DNA of 64,000 bases, taken from sequence record PQ349265.1; one strand, given 5' to 3'. Positions 631-8,797 of this stretch are shown piece after piece (positions within the stretch are counted from its first letter, which is position 1; each line of letters opens with the position of its first letter). Source of the DNA: Escherichia phage CJY920. The position numbers and the translations under genes are program-made. The notes beneath the pieces were generated by a model, which was not told the origin of the DNA, searched no databases, and saw only the letters and a list, made by a program, of their open reading frames with translations.

Positions 631-1028
631 TTTATTGGAGAGTCACTGCCTTAGTGTGAAGTTAAAACGAGGAGCCGTCGAACTGTCTGATTAATGATTT
701 GCGAATCATTATAGTTTTAAGACCCCGGCAGTTTTACGGTGTACCTCTTGAATGTTATTCTTATAGCGGCAAGTGCATGCTACCCCGAGGTGATGGCCAA
801 TCGGGAGTACGCCTCAAGGCCTATATATCCATCAGTATATATCTTATCCTCGAGAAATCGAACCCGGAACCTTTAAGCTAACGGTGTGCAACAGATAAGA
901 GCTATAAGGTATGATGACGGGTTTATGGTTATCCTGGTCGTTAAATATCCAAAAACCTATGTTCCCCTTGAGGGCTTGCGCAGGCAATGCCAATAAGTCC
1001 TGCATTTTCATTTAAAAGAGAATTTATA

Positions 1029-1205
1029 ATGGCAAAACAAGCTAAAGCAAAGAAAGCAGTTGAAAAGAAAGTTGGTGATTCTAAACGCGCTGGTTACAAG
1101 CGTGGGTCGAACTCTCGTATCAATCAAACTGTTGAGAAGATCATGCGCCGAGCACGTGCGGTTCTTCGAGATGATGCTTCTCGTTTTGGTAAGCAGAAAG
1201 CATAA
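1029..1205 (+). CDS. small lysine-rich basic protein (58 aa), hypothetical
   Basis: ATG at 1029 in frame with track ORF 987..1205; followed by hairpin terminator. Confidence 0.35.
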   Translation: MAKQAKAKKAVEKKVGDSKRAGYKRGSNSRINQTVEKIMRRARAVLRDDASRFGKQKA

Positions 1206-1208
1206 GTT

Positions 1209-1235
1209 GAGGACTCCTTCGGGAGTCCTTTTTTA
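1209..1235 (+). terminator. rho-independent terminator (GGACTCC-ttcg-GGAGTCC + T-run)
   Basis: Perfect 7-bp stem, tetraloop and T6 read directly. Confidence 0.6.
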
Positions 1236-1250
1236 TTTTCCAAAGATTGC

Positions 1251-1290
1251 ACAAAGTTGTTTACAGTATGGTTCCTTTGTGATAGTATTA
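1251..1290 (+). promoter_or_regulatory. early-type promoter (GTTTAC -35 at 1259-1264, TAGTAT -10 at 1283-1288) with conserved upstream CACAAAGTT element
   Basis: Motif read directly; same element recurs at about 61353 and 61723. Confidence 0.45.
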
Positions 1291-1375
1291 TCTTACACAA
1301 ACAAAGGAGAATAAAATGAAAACGATTAATCGGGTTACGGTCATTGGGCTGATGTTGAAATTATAAGTATTGAAA

Positions 1376-1834
1376 ATGTCTGAGCTAGAAATAAGAAGCA
1401 ATTTTAGATGGCCATCATGTGCATTAAGCAATTTCGCCCAATGGCCTTTCGTTATGGATGGTATCCAATTTGGAGGTCTCGAAGGATTCCTCCAAGGATG
1501 TAAGGTGAAAAATGTTGAACAGCAAAGACGTATATTTGGGTTATCCGGGCTTGCCGCCCAACAAGCTGGAAGGTCTTATGCTAGAGCTCAGGACCGTGGC
1601 ACGTTGTTCTGGCTTGGAACTCCGTTTTCAAGATATTCCGAAGCATGGAAAGAATTATACACAAATGCATATTTTGAAGCAGCGATCCAAAACAGGGGTT
1701 TTCGTGATGCATTACAAGCCTCGAAAGGAAAAGTTTTGAAGCACAGCATGGCTAGTGGTCTAACAAAAGATGATACAATACTAACCGAAGCTGAATTTAT
1801 TGATGTGTTAAACCTATTAAGAGACTCTCTATGA
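1376..1834 (+). CDS. NADAR/YbiA-like (DUF1768-like) domain protein
   Basis: Motif LSNFAQWPFVMDGIQFGGLEGFLQGCK resembles the YbiA/NADAR signature (SNF..P...DG...E..FQ..K); first ATG at 1376 (track start 1370 is TTG). Confidence 0.5.
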   Translation: MSELEIRSNFRWPSCALSNFAQWPFVMDGIQFGGLEGFLQGCKVKNVEQQRRIFGLSGLAAQQAGRSYARAQDRGTLFWLGTPFSRYSEAWKELYTNAYFEAAIQNRGFRDALQASKGKVLKHSMASGLTKDDTILTEAEFIDVLNLLRDSL

Positions 1835-2679
1835 AGCCAACTATTTTGACTGATATTGATGGAGTATGTTTAAGCTGGCAATCAGGCCTTCCTTATTTTG
1901 CTCAGAAATATAATCTTCCGTTAGAACATATTTTAAAAATGATCCAAGATGAGAAATTTATTTCTCCAGGTAAACTCTTTAATTGTGATGAAGAACTTGG
2001 TGTCAAGTTAATTGAAAAATACAATCGTTCAGATTTTATTCGTTACTTGTCTCCGTATAAAGATGCCCTGTGTGTAATTAACAAATTAAAAGAAGATTAT
2101 AATTTTGTAGCTGTTACAGCATTGGGTGATTCTATTGATGCTCTATTAAATCGTCAATTTAATTTGAATGCTCTTTTTCCTGGTGCCTTCTCAGAAGTAA
2201 TGATGTGTGGTCATGATTCTTCAAAAGAAGAGTTGTTTAAAAAGGCAAAAGAGAAATATAACGTAATTTGTTATATTGACGATCTCGCTCACCACTGCGA
2301 CCACGCGAGTGAAATATTAAATGTTCCGGTTTATTGGATGGCTCGAGGAGAACGTGACAATATTCCAAAAACTGCTCAGCGAGTTTATACATGGAATGAT
2401 GTAGAAAATAAGCTTTTTTCGCCGAAGGAAAATAAAGAAAGTTTTGATAGTGAAAAAGCTATAAAAGATTTAATTGAGAAGATGGTTAAAAACGATTCTT
2501 TTCCTTGGAACACTACCTGGAGAACGCCTGGATTAAATCCTTATAATCATCTATATCATCTATATCATCCATATCAGACACATCCGTTTCAGACATGGAA
2601 CTATATTAAACCTGGTGGCATAGAGTATTTGTATAATAGACCTACTAGTGGTGATAATATTTTTCAAGGAGCATTCTAA
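1831..2679 (+). CDS. HAD-superfamily phosphatase/nucleotidase-like protein with Tyr/His-rich C-terminal tail
   Basis: N-terminal LTDIDGV matches HAD motif I (DxDG); 282 aa. Confidence 0.5.
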   Translation: MKPTILTDIDGVCLSWQSGLPYFAQKYNLPLEHILKMIQDEKFISPGKLFNCDEELGVKLIEKYNRSDFIRYLSPYKDALCVINKLKEDYNFVAVTALGDSIDALLNRQFNLNALFPGAFSEVMMCGHDSSKEELFKKAKEKYNVICYIDDLAHHCDHASEILNVPVYWMARGERDNIPKTAQRVYTWNDVENKLFSPKENKESFDSEKAIKDLIEKMVKNDSFPWNTTWRTPGLNPYNHLYHLYHPYQTHPFQTWNYIKPGGIEYLYNRPTSGDNIFQGAF

Positions 2680-2948
2680 TGTTTGTTGTTCATACTATTT
2701 ATGAAAATGAAGATAATACTACACGTGATTACGGTCACGTAAATCAATTTTTTAGATGCAATCCAGAATTCCGTGCTCAAAAAGACGAACGAATTTTTAA
2801 AAAATGTGTAGAACAAGGTTTCATTTACGTCAAGCACTGGATGCAAGGAAATAAAGTTAGAACTACATATCATAAGTCTTTGCCTGAGCTTAATGATGAA
2901 TTGATTTATAATAGAAATGTAAATCAAACTCTGAAGGATGAACAATGA
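2679..2948 (+). CDS. hypothetical protein (89 aa)
   Basis: ATG at 2679, tightly packed between flanking genes. Confidence 0.4.
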   Translation: MFVVHTIYENEDNTTRDYGHVNQFFRCNPEFRAQKDERIFKKCVEQGFIYVKHWMQGNKVRTTYHKSLPELNDELIYNRNVNQTLKDEQ

Positions 2949-4405
2949 TTCTTAAAATTCTGAATGAAATAGCATCTATTGGATCAACTAAGCAGAAGCA
3001 AGCAATTCTTGAAAAGAATAAAGATAATGAATTGCTTAAACGAGTATATCGTCTGACTTATTCTCGTGGGTTACAGTATTATATCAAGAAATGGCCTAAG
3101 CCTGGTATTGCTACCCAGAGTTTTGGAATGCTGACCATTACCGATATGCTTGACTTTATTGAATTTACGTTAGCTACTCGGAAATTGACTGGAAATGCAG
3201 CAATTGAGGAATTAACTGGATATATCACTGATGGTAAAAAGGATGATGTTGAAGTTTTGCGTCGAGTTATGATGCGAGACCTTGAATGCGGTGCTTCAGT
3301 ATCTATTGCAAATAAAGTTTGGCCAGGTTTAATTCCTGAACAACCTCAAATGCTGGCAAGTTCTTATGATGAAAAAGGCATTAGTAAGAATATCAAGTTT
3401 CCAGCTTTTGCCCAGTTAAAAGCTGATGGGGCTCGGTGTTTTGCTGAAGTCAGAGGAGATGAATTAGATGATGTTCGTCTTTTATCACGAGCTGGTAATG
3501 AATATCTAGGATTAGATCTTCTTAAGGAAGAGTTAATCAAAATGACCGCTGAAGCCCGCCAGATTCATCCAGAAGGTGTGTTAATTGATGGCGAATTGGT
3601 ATACCATGAGCAAGTTAAAAAGGAACCAGAAGGCCTAGATTTTCTTTTTGACACTCCTGAAATTAGCAAAGCTAAAGACTTCGCAGAAGTAGCTGAATCT
3701 CGTACTGCTTCTAATGGAATCGCTAATAAATCTTTAAAGGGAACTATTTCTGAAAAAGAAGCTCAATGCATGAAGTTTCAGGTCTGGGATTATGTCCCGT
3801 TGGTAGAAATATACGGTCTTCCGGCGTTTCGTTTAAAATATGATGTACGTTTTTCTAAACTAGAACAAATGACATCAGGATATGATAAAGTAATTTTAAT
3901 TGAAAACCAGGTAGTAAATAACCTAGATGAAGCTAAGGTAATTTATAAAAAGTATATTGACCAAGGTCTTGAAGGTATTATTCTCAAAAATACCGATGGA
4001 TTGTGGGAAAATGCTCGTTCAAAAAATCTCTATAAATTTAAAGAAGTAATTGATGTTGATTTAAAAATTGTAGGAATTTATCCTCACCGTAAAGACCCTA
4101 CTAAAGCCGGTGGATTTATTCTTGAATCAGAATGTGGAAAAATTAAAGTAAATGCTGGTTCAGGCTTAAAAGATAAAGCCGGTGTAAAATCACATGAACT
4201 TGACCGTACTCGCATTATGGAAAACCAAAATTATTATATTGGAAAAATTCTAGAATGTGAATGCAACGGTTGGTTAAAATCTGACGGCCGCACTGATTAC
4301 GTTAAATTATTTCTTCCGATTGCGATTCGTTTACGTGAAGATAAAACTAAAGCTAATACATTCGAGGATGTATTTGGTGATTTTCATGAGGTAACTGGTC
4401 TATGA
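2945..4405 (+). CDS. 30: ATP-dependent DNA ligase
   Basis: 486 aa (T4 ligase is about 487 aa as I recall); adenylation motif KADGAR; synteny with alt. Confidence 0.9.
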   Translation: MILKILNEIASIGSTKQKQAILEKNKDNELLKRVYRLTYSRGLQYYIKKWPKPGIATQSFGMLTITDMLDFIEFTLATRKLTGNAAIEELTGYITDGKKDDVEVLRRVMMRDLECGASVSIANKVWPGLIPEQPQMLASSYDEKGISKNIKFPAFAQLKADGARCFAEVRGDELDDVRLLSRAGNEYLGLDLLKEELIKMTAEARQIHPEGVLIDGELVYHEQVKKEPEGLDFLFDTPEISKAKDFAEVAESRTASNGIANKSLKGTISEKEAQCMKFQVWDYVPLVEIYGLPAFRLKYDVRFSKLEQMTSGYDKVILIENQVVNNLDEAKVIYKKYIDQGLEGIILKNTDGLWENARSKNLYKFKEVIDVDLKIVGIYPHRKDPTKAGGFILESECGKIKVNAGSGLKDKAGVKSHELDRTRIMENQNYYIGKILECECNGWLKSDGRTDYVKLFLPIAIRLREDKTKANTFEDVFGDFHEVTGL

Positions 4406-4590
4406 AAGCTTACTTAGAAACAATTGTCATTGCTCAAAAAGAAGGTGGAGATGTTTCTACTTCTGTATCACAAGTCATTCTCGAATTTGTAGATGCATAT
4501 GCTTATAATAAATTTACAGAAACATTTGATGCCTATGAAAAAGGACCAAAGTTTGAAATATATCGTACTCTCTTACCACTAGATTACTAA
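4402..4590 (+). CDS. hypothetical protein (62 aa)
   Basis: ATGA overlap with ligase stop; terminator directly downstream. Confidence 0.35.
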   Translation: MKAYLETIVIAQKEGGDVSTSVSQVILEFVDAYAYNKFTETFDAYEKGPKFEIYRTLLPLDY

Positions 4591-4606
4591 AGGCCTTCGG
4601 GCCTTT
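4589..4606 (+). terminator. hairpin terminator (AAAGGCC-ttcg-GGCCTTT)
   Basis: Inverted repeat read directly. Confidence 0.5.
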
Positions 4607-4611
4607 AATTT

Positions 4612-4619
4612 TATAAATA
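4612..4619 (+). promoter_or_regulatory. T4 late promoter box TATAAATA upstream of alt paralog 1
   Basis: Exact TATAAATA about 20 nt upstream of the ATG at 4640. Confidence 0.6.
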
Positions 4620-4639
4620 GAATAAACACTAGAGAGGAT

Positions 4640-6736
4640 ATGATGGAACTCATTACAGAATTATTTGACGAAGATACTACTCTTCCGATTACAAACTTAA
4701 ATCCAAAGAAGAAAATACCACAAATTTTTTCAGTTCATGTTGATGACGCAATTGAACAACCAGGCTTTCGTTTATGTACCTATACATCTGGAGGTGATAC
4801 TAACCGTGATTTAAAGATGGGCGATAAAATGATGCATATTGTTCCTTTTACATTAACTGCTAAAGGTTCAATTGCTAAATTAAAAGGTCTCGGTCCAAGC
4901 CCAATTAATTATATCAATTCAGTTTTTACTGTTGCAATGCAGACGATGCGTCAGTATAAAATTGATGCCTGTATGCTCCGTATTCTTAAGTCTAAAACTG
5001 CCGGTCAAGCTCGACAAATTCAAGTTATTGCTGATAGACTTATCCGTAGTCGTTCAGGTGGCAGATACGTCCTTCTTAAGGAACTCTGGGATTATGATAA
5101 AAAGTATGCATATATTCTTATACATCGCAAAAATGTATCACTAGAAGACATTCCAGGAGTTCCGGAAATTAGTACCGAGCTCTTTACTAAAGTTGAATCG
5201 AAAGTCGGCGATGTTTATATCAATAAAGATACTGGAGCTCAAGTAACTAAAAATGAGGCAATTGCAGCATCTATTGCACAAGAAAACGATAAACGTTCTG
5301 ACCAAGCTGTAATCGTTAAAGTTAAAATTTCCCGTAGAGCAATTGCACAAAGTCAGTCATTGGAATCTTCTAGATTTGAAAGTGAATTATTCCAGAAGTA
5401 TGAATCTACTGCAGCTAATTTCAATAAACCTGCTACAGCTCCTTTAATTCCCGAAGCAGAAGAAATGAAACTTGGAATTAATTCAATAGCTTCTAAAACT
5501 AAGGCAGCAAAAATTATTGCCGAAGGAACCGCAAATGAACTTCATTATGATTATAAATTCTTTTCAAAAAGTGAGGTTAATGAAGTTTCTGAAAAAATTA
5601 AAGATGTAATTCTTAATGCGATTAAAAATGAACCGACTACTTCAATAAAATGTTTAGAGAAGTATGCAGCAGCTATTAATAAATTCTTTGAAGAATATAA
5701 AGATACTTGGCTTGATAAACATAATAAAACCCGTAAAGGACAGCCAGATGAAGTCTGGGAAGAAATGACTAAAAATTCCTGGAACGCAGCAAAAACTAAA
5801 TTCCTCAAAAGAATGATTTACAGCTTTTCTGGAATTGGTGCAGGTCCAATGATTGATATTACTATTGCCCGTGATGGTTCTAAATATACTCCATCACAAA
5901 AGCGCGGCATTAGAGAGTATTGTGGTTCAGGATATACTGACATCAATAATCTTCTTTTAGGACGCTACAATCCAGAACGATATGATGTAATGAGTGAAAA
6001 AGAAATTGAATCTGCTATAAATAACTTAGATTCAGCTTTTGAAAATGGTGACCGTATACCGGAAGGAATTACAGTTTATCGTGCACAAAGTATGACTGCT
6101 CCTATATACGAAGCACTAGTTAAAAATAAAGTGTTCTATTTCAGAAATTTTGTATCTACTTCTTTAACTCCTATCATTTTTGGACGTTTTGGAATTACAC
6201 ATGCTGGTATTGGTCTTTTAGAACCAGAAGCTCGTAATGAATTGACAGTTGATAAAAATGAAGAAGGAATAACTATTAATCCAAACGAAATAAGAGCGTA
6301 TAAAGAAAATCCTGAATACGTTAAAGTTCAAATAGGATGGGCAATTGATGGAGCTCATAAAGTTAATGTTGTATATCCAGGAAGTCTCGGAATAGCAACA
6401 GAAGCTGAAGTTATTCTACCACGCGGATTGATGGTCAAAGTTAATAAAATAACTGATGCTTCTAATAATGACGGAACAACATCTAATAACACAAAACTCA
6501 TTCAAGCTGAAGTTATGACTACAGAAGAACTCACCGAATCGGTAATTTATGACGGTGACAGTCTAATGGAAACTGGTGAAGTAGTTGCAATGACAGGTGA
6601 TATTGAAATAGAAGACAGAGTTGACTTTGCATCATTTGTTTCATCAAATGTTAAACAAAAAGTAGAATCATCTCTTGGAATTATTGCGTCTTGCATAGAT
6701 ATTACAAACATGCCTTACAAGTTCGTTCAAGGATAA
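4640..6736 (+). CDS. Alt-like mono-ADP-ribosyltransferase, paralog 1 (698 aa)
   Basis: ART R-S-E motifs (TVYRAQ, FVSTSL, EAEVILPRG); N-terminus MELITE resembles a prohead-protease cleavage site. Confidence 0.8.
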   Translation: MMELITELFDEDTTLPITNLNPKKKIPQIFSVHVDDAIEQPGFRLCTYTSGGDTNRDLKMGDKMMHIVPFTLTAKGSIAKLKGLGPSPINYINSVFTVAMQTMRQYKIDACMLRILKSKTAGQARQIQVIADRLIRSRSGGRYVLLKELWDYDKKYAYILIHRKNVSLEDIPGVPEISTELFTKVESKVGDVYINKDTGAQVTKNEAIAASIAQENDKRSDQAVIVKVKISRRAIAQSQSLESSRFESELFQKYESTAANFNKPATAPLIPEAEEMKLGINSIASKTKAAKIIAEGTANELHYDYKFFSKSEVNEVSEKIKDVILNAIKNEPTTSIKCLEKYAAAINKFFEEYKDTWLDKHNKTRKGQPDEVWEEMTKNSWNAAKTKFLKRMIYSFSGIGAGPMIDITIARDGSKYTPSQKRGIREYCGSGYTDINNLLLGRYNPERYDVMSEKEIESAINNLDSAFENGDRIPEGITVYRAQSMTAPIYEALVKNKVFYFRNFVSTSLTPIIFGRFGITHAGIGLLEPEARNELTVDKNEEGITINPNEIRAYKENPEYVKVQIGWAIDGAHKVNVVYPGSLGIATEAEVILPRGLMVKVNKITDASNNDGTTSNNTKLIQAEVMTTEELTESVIYDGDSLMETGEVVAMTGDIEIEDRVDFASFVSSNVKQKVESSLGIIASCIDITNMPYKFVQG

Positions 6737-6739
6737 ATC

Positions 6740-8797
6740 ATGGAACTTATTACAGAATTATTTGACGGCGCTTCGGCGCCGGTTGTTAACTTAAATCCTA
6801 AGCATAAAATACCTCAAATTTTTGCTATTCAAGCCGGTGAAGAAAGCGTGCTTCCTGGATTTAGATTTTGTACATACACCTCTGGCGGTGATACAAATAA
6901 AAATGTTAAGCCAGGCGATAAAATGATGCATATCGTAATGATAGGTGTTAATGAGAAACTATCATTAGTTAAACTTAAAAACTTGGGTGGAAATCCAATT
7001 GGTGTCATTAATGCGGTTTTTGATACTGCTCTTCAAACAATGAAACAGTATAAAATTGACGCATGCCTATTCCGCGTGCTAAAGAGTAAAACAAACGGTG
7101 CAGCTCGTCAAATGCAAGTTATTGCCGACCGTTTAGTACGTACTAAAGGAGCAGGTCGATATGTTCTTTTAAAGGAAATCTGGGACTATGATAAAAAGTA
7201 TGCATATATTATGGTTTACCGTAAAAATGCCAATTTAGAAGACATTCCAGGTGTACCTCCTATTTCAACTGAGTTATTCACAAAAGTTGAATCAAAGGTT
7301 GGTGATGTTTATGTAGACGTTAAAACAGGTAATGCTGTTCCTAAAGCTGTTGCTGTTGCTGCTTCTATTGCTTTAGAAAATGATAAGCGTACGGATCAAG
7401 CTGTTATTCAGAAAACTAAAATTAGTCGTCGATTAGCAGCACAAGCTCAATATTCTACTGTCGATGCTTCACTTCAGGGTGATAGCTTCGCTGCTAAGAA
7501 ATATCAAGAGTTTGAATCTAAAGTTCCGGTATATAAAGCAGAAGGACCAATGAACTCCGGTGTTATTCAAGTTGGTTCAAACTTCAGCAAAGGAGCTATC
7601 GGTGGTATGAGGAGTGCTTCTCGTTTTAAATCTAATGATTATGAATTAGAAAGCTTCCGAAATCATATTGCATTGGCTCATGCACGTTTACGTGATCCAT
7701 CTATCAAGTTACAGAGCGATATAACATATCAAGGTTCTCAGGAATATTTAAAGAATAAAGAATTTTTTGATTATAAAACTGATAAAATTTTAAGCGATCT
7801 TGCTGACATTAATATTTCTAATAGCTTTGATGTTATTAAGAAAATTGTCAATGATTTAGTTAAAGGTTCTAAAGCCACACCAGATGAAAAGGTAGCTATT
7901 GTTCAATTTGTCATGAATGGCGTTTATAAATTGATTAATGAATCTGCTTCTCAAGCGTATGAATACGCAAGCACCGAAGTAACTCCAAAAGGATTAACTC
8001 AGGCTGAGTCTGATGTAATTGAAGATTATTGTGCAGATTCATATGTTGAAATGAACTCGTTCCTTTTAGGTAAACCAGATTCTACTCGTGAAGAATATAT
8101 GGAACGAGCTATTAAACACATCGAGACAATGGATTCTGCCTTTGCCAAAGGATCAGTTCTTCCTCCAGGAACTACACTTTATCGTGGACAAGAAGTTACC
8201 TTTAAAACTTTACGTCATAATATTGAAAATAAAATGTTCTATTTCAAGAACTTCGTATCCACATCGCTTAAACCAAATATCTTCGGTGAGTATGGTAAAA
8301 ACTATATGGCTCTAGATGATTTCAGTGCAGTATTTTCTGGTGAAGGAGAAGGTTCAGTTGATGCTGAAGATTTAATGCATATGGGTAGTCATTCTGCTTA
8401 TGCGAATGAAGATGCTGAAACTAGCGTAGGTATGGTAATTAAAGGAGCTGAGCGAATCAAAGTTATCGTTCCAGGACATTTATCAGGATTTCCATCAGAA
8501 GCTGAAGTTATTCTACCGCGTGGAATTTTGCTGAAGATTAATAAAGTGAGTACGTACATGATGAAAGAAACTGCTTATAATAAGTATCTAATCGAAGGCA
8601 CAATCGTTCCTCCTTCTGAACAATTAGAAGAATCGGTATATGATGGCGACCATCTAATGGAAACTGGTGAAGTTCGTCCAATGGCTGGATTTAATCAATT
8701 CCTTGTAGAAGAATCAAAAGAAGAGGAAAACGAAGTTTCTCAAATCTTGGCTTCTTTGGTTAACATCAACGGAATGTCTAAAAAGTTCAAGATGTAG
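6740..8797 (+). CDS. alt: Alt ADP-ribosyltransferase, paralog 2 (685 aa)
   Basis: Paralog of the upstream ORF; TLYRGQ, FVSTSL, EAEVILPRG; length near recalled T4 Alt (682 aa). Confidence 0.8.
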   Translation: MELITELFDGASAPVVNLNPKHKIPQIFAIQAGEESVLPGFRFCTYTSGGDTNKNVKPGDKMMHIVMIGVNEKLSLVKLKNLGGNPIGVINAVFDTALQTMKQYKIDACLFRVLKSKTNGAARQMQVIADRLVRTKGAGRYVLLKEIWDYDKKYAYIMVYRKNANLEDIPGVPPISTELFTKVESKVGDVYVDVKTGNAVPKAVAVAASIALENDKRTDQAVIQKTKISRRLAAQAQYSTVDASLQGDSFAAKKYQEFESKVPVYKAEGPMNSGVIQVGSNFSKGAIGGMRSASRFKSNDYELESFRNHIALAHARLRDPSIKLQSDITYQGSQEYLKNKEFFDYKTDKILSDLADINISNSFDVIKKIVNDLVKGSKATPDEKVAIVQFVMNGVYKLINESASQAYEYASTEVTPKGLTQAESDVIEDYCADSYVEMNSFLLGKPDSTREEYMERAIKHIETMDSAFAKGSVLPPGTTLYRGQEVTFKTLRHNIENKMFYFKNFVSTSLKPNIFGEYGKNYMALDDFSAVFSGEGEGSVDAEDLMHMGSHSAYANEDAETSVGMVIKGAERIKVIVPGHLSGFPSEAEVILPRGILLKINKVSTYMMKETAYNKYLIEGTIVPPSEQLEESVYDGDHLMETGEVRPMAGFNQFLVEESKEEENEVSQILASLVNINGMSKKFKM

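Follow-up and report, generated by a model that had tools for sequence, protein, structure and literature searches.

The adfN locus

The 64,000-nucleotide stretch of Escherichia phage CJY920 analysed here (PQ349265.1; the whole of it is called the window) comes from a T4-like genome of the Tequatrovirus group. Its region 900–4600 is matched by 762 phage records at up to 98% identity, nearly all of them Tequatrovirus of Escherichia, Shigella and Yersinia. At 1376–1834 on the + strand lies a gene whose sequence identifies it as orthologous to T4 gene 30.3, now called adfN (anti-DarT factor NADAR; Johannesman, Carlson & LeRoux, PMC11257639 / PMC11825919), and its product is predicted to be a phage-clade NADAR DNA ADP-ribosylglycohydrolase. 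The anti-DarTG1 role of AdfN is already known, so that a characterised gene is re-identified here; its identity, fold, conserved residues and gene context come from the present analysis. Compared with the T4 reference annotation, the genes on the + strand run rIII, a 30.9-like open reading frame (ORF), 30.3, 30.2, 30.1, gene 30, alt.1 and two alt genes. The 30.3 stop overlaps the 30.2 start as ATGA and start-stop overlaps continue through alt.1, and the run 30.3-30.2-30.1-30-alt.1, bounded by a promoter-like site and a terminator-like hairpin, is probably one early transcription unit.

Translated from the ATG at 1376 to the stop at 1834, adfN encodes 152 residues, or 154 if translation started at the upstream TTG at 1370. 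A sequence-only reading of this DNA, made without database searches, had picked out an ORF of 153 residues carrying LSNFAQWPFVMDGIQFGGLEGFLQGCK. The ORF and its motif are present, the latter at residues 17–43, and the length is corrected to 152. The motif is not a chance resemblance, because the whole ORF matches PF08010 (Phage_30_3, 'Bacteriophage protein GP30.3') at E 4.3e-69, with a score of 231.1 bits against a gathering cut-off of 36 and with profile positions 1–138 of 138 covered. Alignment to T4 gp30.3 is gapless to residue 152 with 148 of 152 residues identical (97%), and phage GEP001 carries a copy with 100% identity to the window protein. The four substitutions relative to T4 (T82V, E89P, R107K and M125I) are conservative or peripheral, and all lie outside the columns conserved across 59 homologues. 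E36 and H123 do not vary among these homologues, and conservation of K43 is at least 90%. All three residues are present in the window protein as they are in T4, and the two loci share 30.2, 30.1, the ligase gene and alt.1 downstream. Given that E36, K43, H123 and the full C-terminal helix are kept and that the four differences from T4 fall outside conserved columns, the window allele very probably encodes a functional AdfN.

The opposite case has a precedent in phage RB69, whose allele is inactive because a frameshift removes its last 15 residues (PMC11257639). The window copy might likewise be inactive or decaying, which would leave the phage sensitive to DarTG1. In its favour, the region is rearranged, with genes 30.4–30.8 deleted to just short of the adfN ATG, and shortened 30.3 coding sequences have been annotated in phages NBG2 (126 codons) and LH2 (109 codons). 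However, the window frame is intact to the T4-equivalent stop, and 152 of 152 residues align without a gap, E36, K43 and H123 included. The C-terminal helix that RB69 lacks is intact in the window model at residues 138–151, with a block-mean predicted local distance difference test score (pLDDT) of 87–97. The short coding sequences are annotation choices, since the LH2 DNA translates to the full 152 residues and NBG2 aligns over all 152. With frame and C-terminus intact, an RB69-like inactive allele is refuted at the sequence level. A non-functional adfN is now extremely improbable and would have to come about through an expression defect, such as a missing transcript or failed translation from the weak ribosome-binding context at 1376.

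AdfN is a member of the NADAR superfamily

The AlphaFold2 (AF2) model of the window protein has a pLDDT of 92.8 and a predicted template-modelling score of 0.88. When compared with the PDB using Foldseek its only credible matches are three solved NADAR structures (probabilities 0.97–1.00), the next match having a probability of 0.05 or less. The best of the three is E. coli YbiA (2b3w; E 4.7e-5, template-modelling score 0.69), and the others are the P. nicotianae NADAR with ADP-ribose (8bau) and the G. lovleyi DarT1-linked NADAR (8bat). A profile built from the 59 homologues matches YbiA, and no other PDB sequence, at E 0.0018 over the SNF...DG...E..FQ..K segment, the shared motif reading SNFa.wP...DG......E.(F/Y)(L/F)Q..K. 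E36 and K43 align with the EHYFQAQK segment of YbiA, with the Glu and Lys spaced 7 residues apart. Pfam NADAR (PF08719) is matched by 23 of the 59 family members, with a best E of 1.5e-7, and one homologue (P0062) carries both PF08010 and PF08719. By fold, by family profile and by the Pfam matches of its relatives, membership of the NADAR superfamily is fully supported, as the sequence-only reading had proposed from the YbiA-like signature. Of the two computational checks which that reading had suggested, structure prediction returned NADAR structures alone. The hidden Markov model search succeeded through PF08010 and through the 23 relatives, but not for the window protein itself against PF08719.

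Within the superfamily, the third catalytic position distinguishes the clades. This position, in the last strand, is His in phage NADARs, Glu in YbiA-type proteins and Asp in DarT1-linked NADARs (PMC11125620, PMC11543638). In the AF2 model H123 falls within the last β-strand (residues 120–123), and it is invariant in all 59 sequences, as expected for the phage clade. YbiA, the closest structural match, is only 17% identical to the window AdfN and carries the Glu. YbiA belongs to the host, where its gene is a housekeeping or SOS-operon one; its role is in handling riboflavin intermediates, and it gives no DarT1 protection in vivo (PMC11125620). The DarG1-type NADARs, such as G. lovleyi 8bat and the E. 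coli C7 NADAR, have the same fold and the same seven-residue Glu/Lys spacing (E88/K95 in C7, E36/K43 in AdfN), and they share with T4 AdfN the chemistry of guanine-ADP-ribose hydrolysis (PMC11257639, PMC11125620). AdfN is smaller, with 152 residues against the 219-residue chain in 8bat, and unlike the DarG1-type antitoxins it is an orphan without a linked toxin.

Anti-DarTG1 function and proposed mechanism

The enzymatic activity and phenotype ascribed here to AdfN are those published for the 97% identical T4 protein. Resistance to DarTG1 was mapped to 30.3 by crosses of sensitive RB69 with resistant T2 and T4, and T4 or T2 deleted for adfN plaques ~4 logs less efficiently on DarTG1 (PMC11257639). 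Plasmid-borne AdfN fully rescues RB69 on DarTG1 while the E36A and K43A mutants fail; purified AdfN strips ADP-ribose from DarT1-modified DNA, and the protein does not bind DarT1 (PMC11257639). In an independent study a phage NADAR removed ADP-ribose from guanine and not from thymidine in vitro (PMC11125620). A T4 transposon screen (HIDEN-SEQ, preprint 10.1101/2025.11.20.689424) found 30.3 to be non-essential on plain K-12 and completely depleted on DarTG1, with a log2 fold change (log2FC) of -7.25 and an adjusted p of 0. The DarTG1 log2FC values quoted here and below are from its supplementary file 7, in the table that follows the RnlAB table and is indexed as Data S6 Control_vs_DarTG1.

These results suggest a simple mechanism for the window phage. 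The host DarT1 toxin would ADP-ribosylate guanines in replicating phage DNA, and AdfN, as a small stand-alone NADAR-fold N-glycohydrolase, would cleave the bond between ADP-ribose and guanine. Replication could then proceed, and the phage would be resistant to the DarTG1 abortive-infection defence. AdfN would act enzymatically through E36, K43 and probably H123 rather than by binding the toxin, and its gene, the first of the adfN-30.2-30.1-ligase-alt.1 run that ends at a terminator, would probably be transcribed early. AdfN thereby resembles AdfA (gp61.2) and AdfM (Tk.4), which also shield T-even phages from DarT toxins. AdfA is a non-enzyme that binds DarT1, whereas AdfM is a macrodomain directed against the thymidine-modifying DarTG2, on which AdfN has no effect.

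The sequence-only reading had put the gene forward as a candidate counter-defence against DNA ADP-ribosylation, and the 97% identical T4 orthologue is indeed the anti-DarTG1 protein AdfN, active on guanine-linked ADP-ribose (PMC11257639, PMC11125620, HIDEN-SEQ). Its core idea is right yet not new, because T4 gp30.3 had already been published as AdfN, necessary and sufficient against DarTG1. The experiments that it proposed also exist in print. Gene deletion with plating on a DarTG host has been carried out for T4 and T2 with the predicted result (PMC11257639), and in vitro hydrolysis for T4 AdfN and a phage NADAR (PMC11257639, PMC11125620). T4 gp30.3 was predicted to be a NADAR between 2012 and 2023, was found active in vitro in 2024, was established as necessary and sufficient against DarTG1 in 2024–25, and was then confirmed by the transposon screen. 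What the window adds is one more 97% identical allele, together with a case in which a short motif was enough for a reading of raw sequence to recover a true anti-defence gene.

Several observations weigh against this account of the window gene. The window protein gives no match to PF08719 even at E up to 10, and alone (phmmer) it matches no PDB sequence, so that the NADAR link needs profiles or structure. An NCBIfam search with the same protein likewise returned nothing for NADAR. We take the PF08719 miss as divergence and not as exclusion, because Pfam models this family separately as PF08010. The activity of the window allele is extrapolated from its 97% identity to the T4 protein. The putative promoter upstream of adfN, at 1260–1288, is a consensus match, and the scan that found it was not enriched, with 14 sites against 14.9 expected in shuffled sequence; since the scan does no better than shuffled sequence, the early-promoter call rests on position and conservation. 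One of the supporting studies (PMC11125620, Toxins 2024) lists its T4 gp30.3 construct as residues 1–208, while the T4 protein has 152. Finally, AdfN fails to neutralise DarT1 in uninfected cells, in which it differs from the DarG1-type antitoxins (PMC11257639, PMC11125620), and its in vivo substrate requirements are therefore incompletely understood. Hydroxymethylcytosine DNA has been suggested as such a requirement.

The last of these observations also lends itself to a different interpretation, in which ADP-ribosylated DNA is not the main substrate of AdfN and DarTG1 resistance is a side activity. The principal targets would then be soluble immune signals derived from ADP-ribose, adducts on RNA or, as for E. 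coli YbiA, reactive intermediates of riboflavin. According to the title of a later paper (PMC12945103), NADARs reverse cytidine ADP-ribosylation, which we count on the side of alternative substrates. A preference of phage NADARs for ADP-ribose derivatives of low molecular weight was proposed in a 2022 survey, and YbiA, the nearest solved structure, is known for detoxifying riboflavin intermediates (PMC11125620, PMC11543638). Against this stand the necessity and sufficiency of AdfN in the face of DarTG1, the dead catalytic mutants and the removal of ADP-ribose from DarT1-modified DNA in vitro, and also the grouping of the phage NADAR clade closest to the DarG1-type NADARs (PMC11257639). Any additional substrates would supplement rather than supplant the established role. 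We therefore consider a primary role elsewhere unlikely, and retain removal of ADP-ribose from guanines in phage DNA as the function of AdfN.

Homologues of 30.3 are found in 1,510 phage records, and PHROGs lists both gp30.3 and gp30.2 only as 'unknown function'. Many GenBank records still label adfN 'hypothetical' or mislabel it, which gives the assignment value for annotation. Homologues appear as a 'DprA-like DNA recombination-mediator protein' in Acinetobacter phi1_092060 and as 'anti-CBASS protein acb1' in Klebsiella Roth17.

Upstream region and the 30.4–30.8 deletion

Upstream of adfN, the 30.9-like ORF (987–1205, +) is ended by a terminator-like hairpin at 1209–1230 (+), consisting of GAGGACTCCTTCGGGAGTCCTT followed by a T run, which is identical in sequence in phage NBG2 and annotated there as a terminator. 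Directly after the hairpin comes the promoter-like site at 1260–1288 (+), of the sigma-70 or T4-early type, which reads TTTACA-17-TAGTAT with an upstream TG. The same site precedes gene 30.8 in T4 and NBG2, with a single spacer base different in the T4 stretch compared. The sequence-only reading had placed an early promoter upstream of the ORF, and this putative one is recognised by its consensus, position and conservation. A literature search yielded no usable report of an early promoter mapped in front of 30.8 in T4.

The genes that follow this site in T4 are missing from the window. The deletion takes out genes 30.8 to 30.4 (~1.4 kb in both T4 and NBG2) and reaches to 9 nucleotides before the adfN ATG. 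Alignments to NBG2 and T4 identify the scar as a mini-ORF of 16 codons at 1317–1367 (+), MKTINRVTVIGLMLKL and a stop, in which the first 5 codons of 30.8 are fused in frame to the last ~11 of 30.4. This junction is shared by one of the 592 matching phage records, that of LH2 (OQ378934.1). As a consequence of the deletion the promoter-like site lies 88 nucleotides upstream of the adfN ATG, compared with ~1.5 kb in T4. Early transcription of adfN in the window phage is probable on this arrangement.

In T4, genes 30.4–30.8 are all non-essential (HIDEN-SEQ, 10.1101/2025.11.20.689424), and a natural variant lacking them confirms their dispensability while altering the promoter context of adfN. Transposon insertions in T4 30.4, which lies immediately upstream of adfN and overlaps it, are moderately depleted on DarTG1 (log2FC -1.79, adjusted p 0.014), and insertions in 30.5 have a log2FC of -3.0 that is not significant (HIDEN-SEQ). 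The depletion of 30.4 is probably a polar effect on adfN, and this suggests that expression of adfN in T4 comes about through upstream read-through. By placing adfN directly behind a putative early promoter, the 30.4–30.8 deletion may supply AdfN sooner or in larger amounts.

Gene neighbourhood and the question of an ADP-ribose cluster

The remaining genes of the locus, all on the + strand, follow T4. The gene rIII is at 382–630, upstream of the features described above. Downstream of 30.2, gene 30.1 (DUF3045; 2679–2948) begins with an ATG that overlaps the 30.2 stop by 1 nucleotide (TAATG), and its own stop is overlapped by the start of gene 30 (2945–4405), which encodes an ATP-dependent DNA ligase (PF01068) 98–99.8% identical to the T4 and NBG2 ligases. 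The packed run ends with alt.1 (4402–4590, 62 residues) and is closed by the terminator-like hairpin at 4588–4607. Next comes TATAAATA at 4612–4619, a motif which we take to be the T4 late-promoter consensus and which would presumably act as a late promoter. It lies 20 nucleotides 5' of the first alt ATG (4640), a position that fits Alt as a late, virion-packaged protein. The two alt genes (4640–6736 and 6740–8797) are in tandem and both encode full-length Alt-type ADP-ribosyltransferases (PF03496) of 698 and 685 residues, 41% identical to each other. From these features the alt genes would form a transcription unit separate from that of adfN, with a sharp early/late boundary at 4588–4640. The product of alt.1 matches PF24647 ('Phage blade protein'), a recent addition to Pfam, at E 1.9e-29. 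In T4 itself the second alt copy exists only as the fragments alt.-1 and alt.-2. Also preserved in the window is the out-of-frame ORF of 75 codons inside adfN (1512–1739, +) that corresponds to T4 30.3', described in the T4 annotation as 'internal translation, in a different reading frame, within gene 30.3'.

The ligase and the two ADP-ribosyltransferases are thus where the sequence-only reading had seen them, but the theme that it drew from them, a cluster for ADP-ribose and nucleotide processing, is another matter. As a single module, adfN, 30.2, the ligase gene and the alt genes could cooperate in several ways: gp30.2 might act on the ADP-ribose that is released or on a phosphorylated intermediate, the ligase might reseal DNA, and AdfN might balance the activity of Alt. 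The packing is certainly tight, through the ATGA overlap of 30.3 with 30.2 and the further overlaps down to alt.1, and Tequatrovirus, Morganella phage MP1 and a T4-like phage of Acinetobacter have all retained the 30.3-30.2-ligase-Alt order. The genetic evidence nevertheless separates adfN from its neighbours. On DarTG1, where insertions in T4 30.3 are lost, those in 30.2 (log2FC -0.12), 30.1 (-0.01), alt.1 (+0.02) and alt (-0.01) are neutral (HIDEN-SEQ). Plasmid AdfN alone restores RB69, a weaker point in that RB69 may carry a 30.2 of its own. In the window, the terminator at 4588–4607 and a separate TATAAATA motif precede alt.

Nor is the pairing of 30.3 with 30.2 general. Across a sample of seven T4-like lineages the two genes are adjacent in three (Tequatrovirus, the Gualtarvirus MP1 of Morganella and the Acinetobacter phage), and in the other four there is no 30.2 homologue within 4 kb of 30.3. 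In these, 30.3 is located near nrd genes (Aeromonas Tulanevirus), among small ORFs (Karamvirus), among tRNA genes (Klebsiella phage Shark_ER15) or directly before the ligase gene (Krischvirus). Given the T4 transposon screen, the boundary marked by terminator and late-promoter motif, and an adjacency that is not conserved, we reject the functional cluster, which is very unlikely, and regard the gene arrangement in the window as inherited T4 synteny. On the T4 data, gp30.2 is not part of the anti-DarTG1 mechanism, but a neighbour without a demonstrated link to adfN.

The HAD-superfamily neighbour gp30.2

Gene 30.2 (1831–2679, +), directly downstream of adfN, encodes a protein of 282 residues that begins MKPTILTDIDGV and carries LTDIDGV at residues 6–12, from which the sequence-only reading had named it a HAD-type phosphatase. 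HAD proteins are defined by motif I, DxDx(T/V), a Ser or Thr in motif II, a Lys or Arg in motif III and an acidic pair in motif IV, and what tells phosphotransferases from dehalogenases is the second Asp in motif I. In gp30.2 the motifs read DIDGV, VTAL and YIDDL. D8, D10, G11, K132, D150 and D151 do not vary across 59 gp30.2 homologues, and conservation of T96 is at least 90%, so that motifs I–IV are all represented among the conserved residues. The model has a core of residues 1–~195 with pLDDT above 90, which carries a helical cap as an insertion behind motif I. This core has the Rossmann-like HAD fold, and its HAD matches in Foldseek reach E ~1e-8. On its motifs and its predicted structure, the assignment of gp30.2 to the HAD superfamily is correct. 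A direct search with gp30.2 matched no Pfam or NCBIfam model, and its PHROG, 420, is given as 'unknown function'. Among the 59 family members 15 match Hydrolase (PF00702; best E 1.2e-4) and 7 match HAD_2.

As to a more specific family, gp30.2 is closest to the 5'(3')-deoxyribonucleotidases (NT5C), the sole specific family that recurs, and the evidence is suggestive. Deoxyribonucleotidases have the lowest root-mean-square deviation and the highest identity among its structural matches, and NT5C (PF06941) is matched by 11 of the 59 members with a best E of 1.2e-4. The family profile matches mouse cytosolic deoxyribonucleotidase (2jao) weakly, at E 0.057, with DxDGV..(W/F).SGL aligned. The NT5C enzymes (mouse and human cdN and mdN, and S. 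epidermidis 3bwv) share with gp30.2 the HAD core and the helical cap after motif I, and likewise DxDGV, followed at +8 by an aromatic residue and next by SGL. The evidence that favours NT5C over other HAD families with a cap is marginal. Beyond the core, gp30.2 alone has an extra ~85 residues at its C-terminus, a helix at 207–220 followed by a disordered Pro/aromatic-rich tail, which the NT5C enzymes lack. As such a protein, gp30.2 would be a Mg-dependent phosphomonoesterase of the HAD superfamily, probably acting on a nucleotide-like phosphoester.

Gene 30.2 is non-essential in T4, where insertions hit 72 of 72 sites (HIDEN-SEQ), and our literature search found no biochemical data on gp30.2 and no study of it. 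With homologues in 1,455 phage records, it is a widespread phage HAD phosphatase that is uncharacterised in published work. A protein present in ~1,450 T4-like records could serve early in infection, for instance, to remove one specific (deoxy)nucleotide or a defence signal derived from a nucleotide. The overlap of 30.2 with adfN in T-even phages could be the mark of an early anti-defence programme that is common to both genes and aimed at systems other than DarTG1. Taken jointly, that gp30.2 has a specific role as yet undescribed and that, separately, the 30.4–30.8 deletion is an adaptive rewiring of adfN seems to us rather unlikely.

The window gp30.2 is 96% identical to its T4 counterpart, and the main difference between the two is a 4-residue HLYH insertion in the tail. 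The length of this tail is variable across homologues, while the ~195-residue HAD core is conserved. The insertion (gp30.2 residues ~240–244, window ~2548–2571) corresponds to a short tandem repeat in the DNA, catctatatcat ctatatcat.

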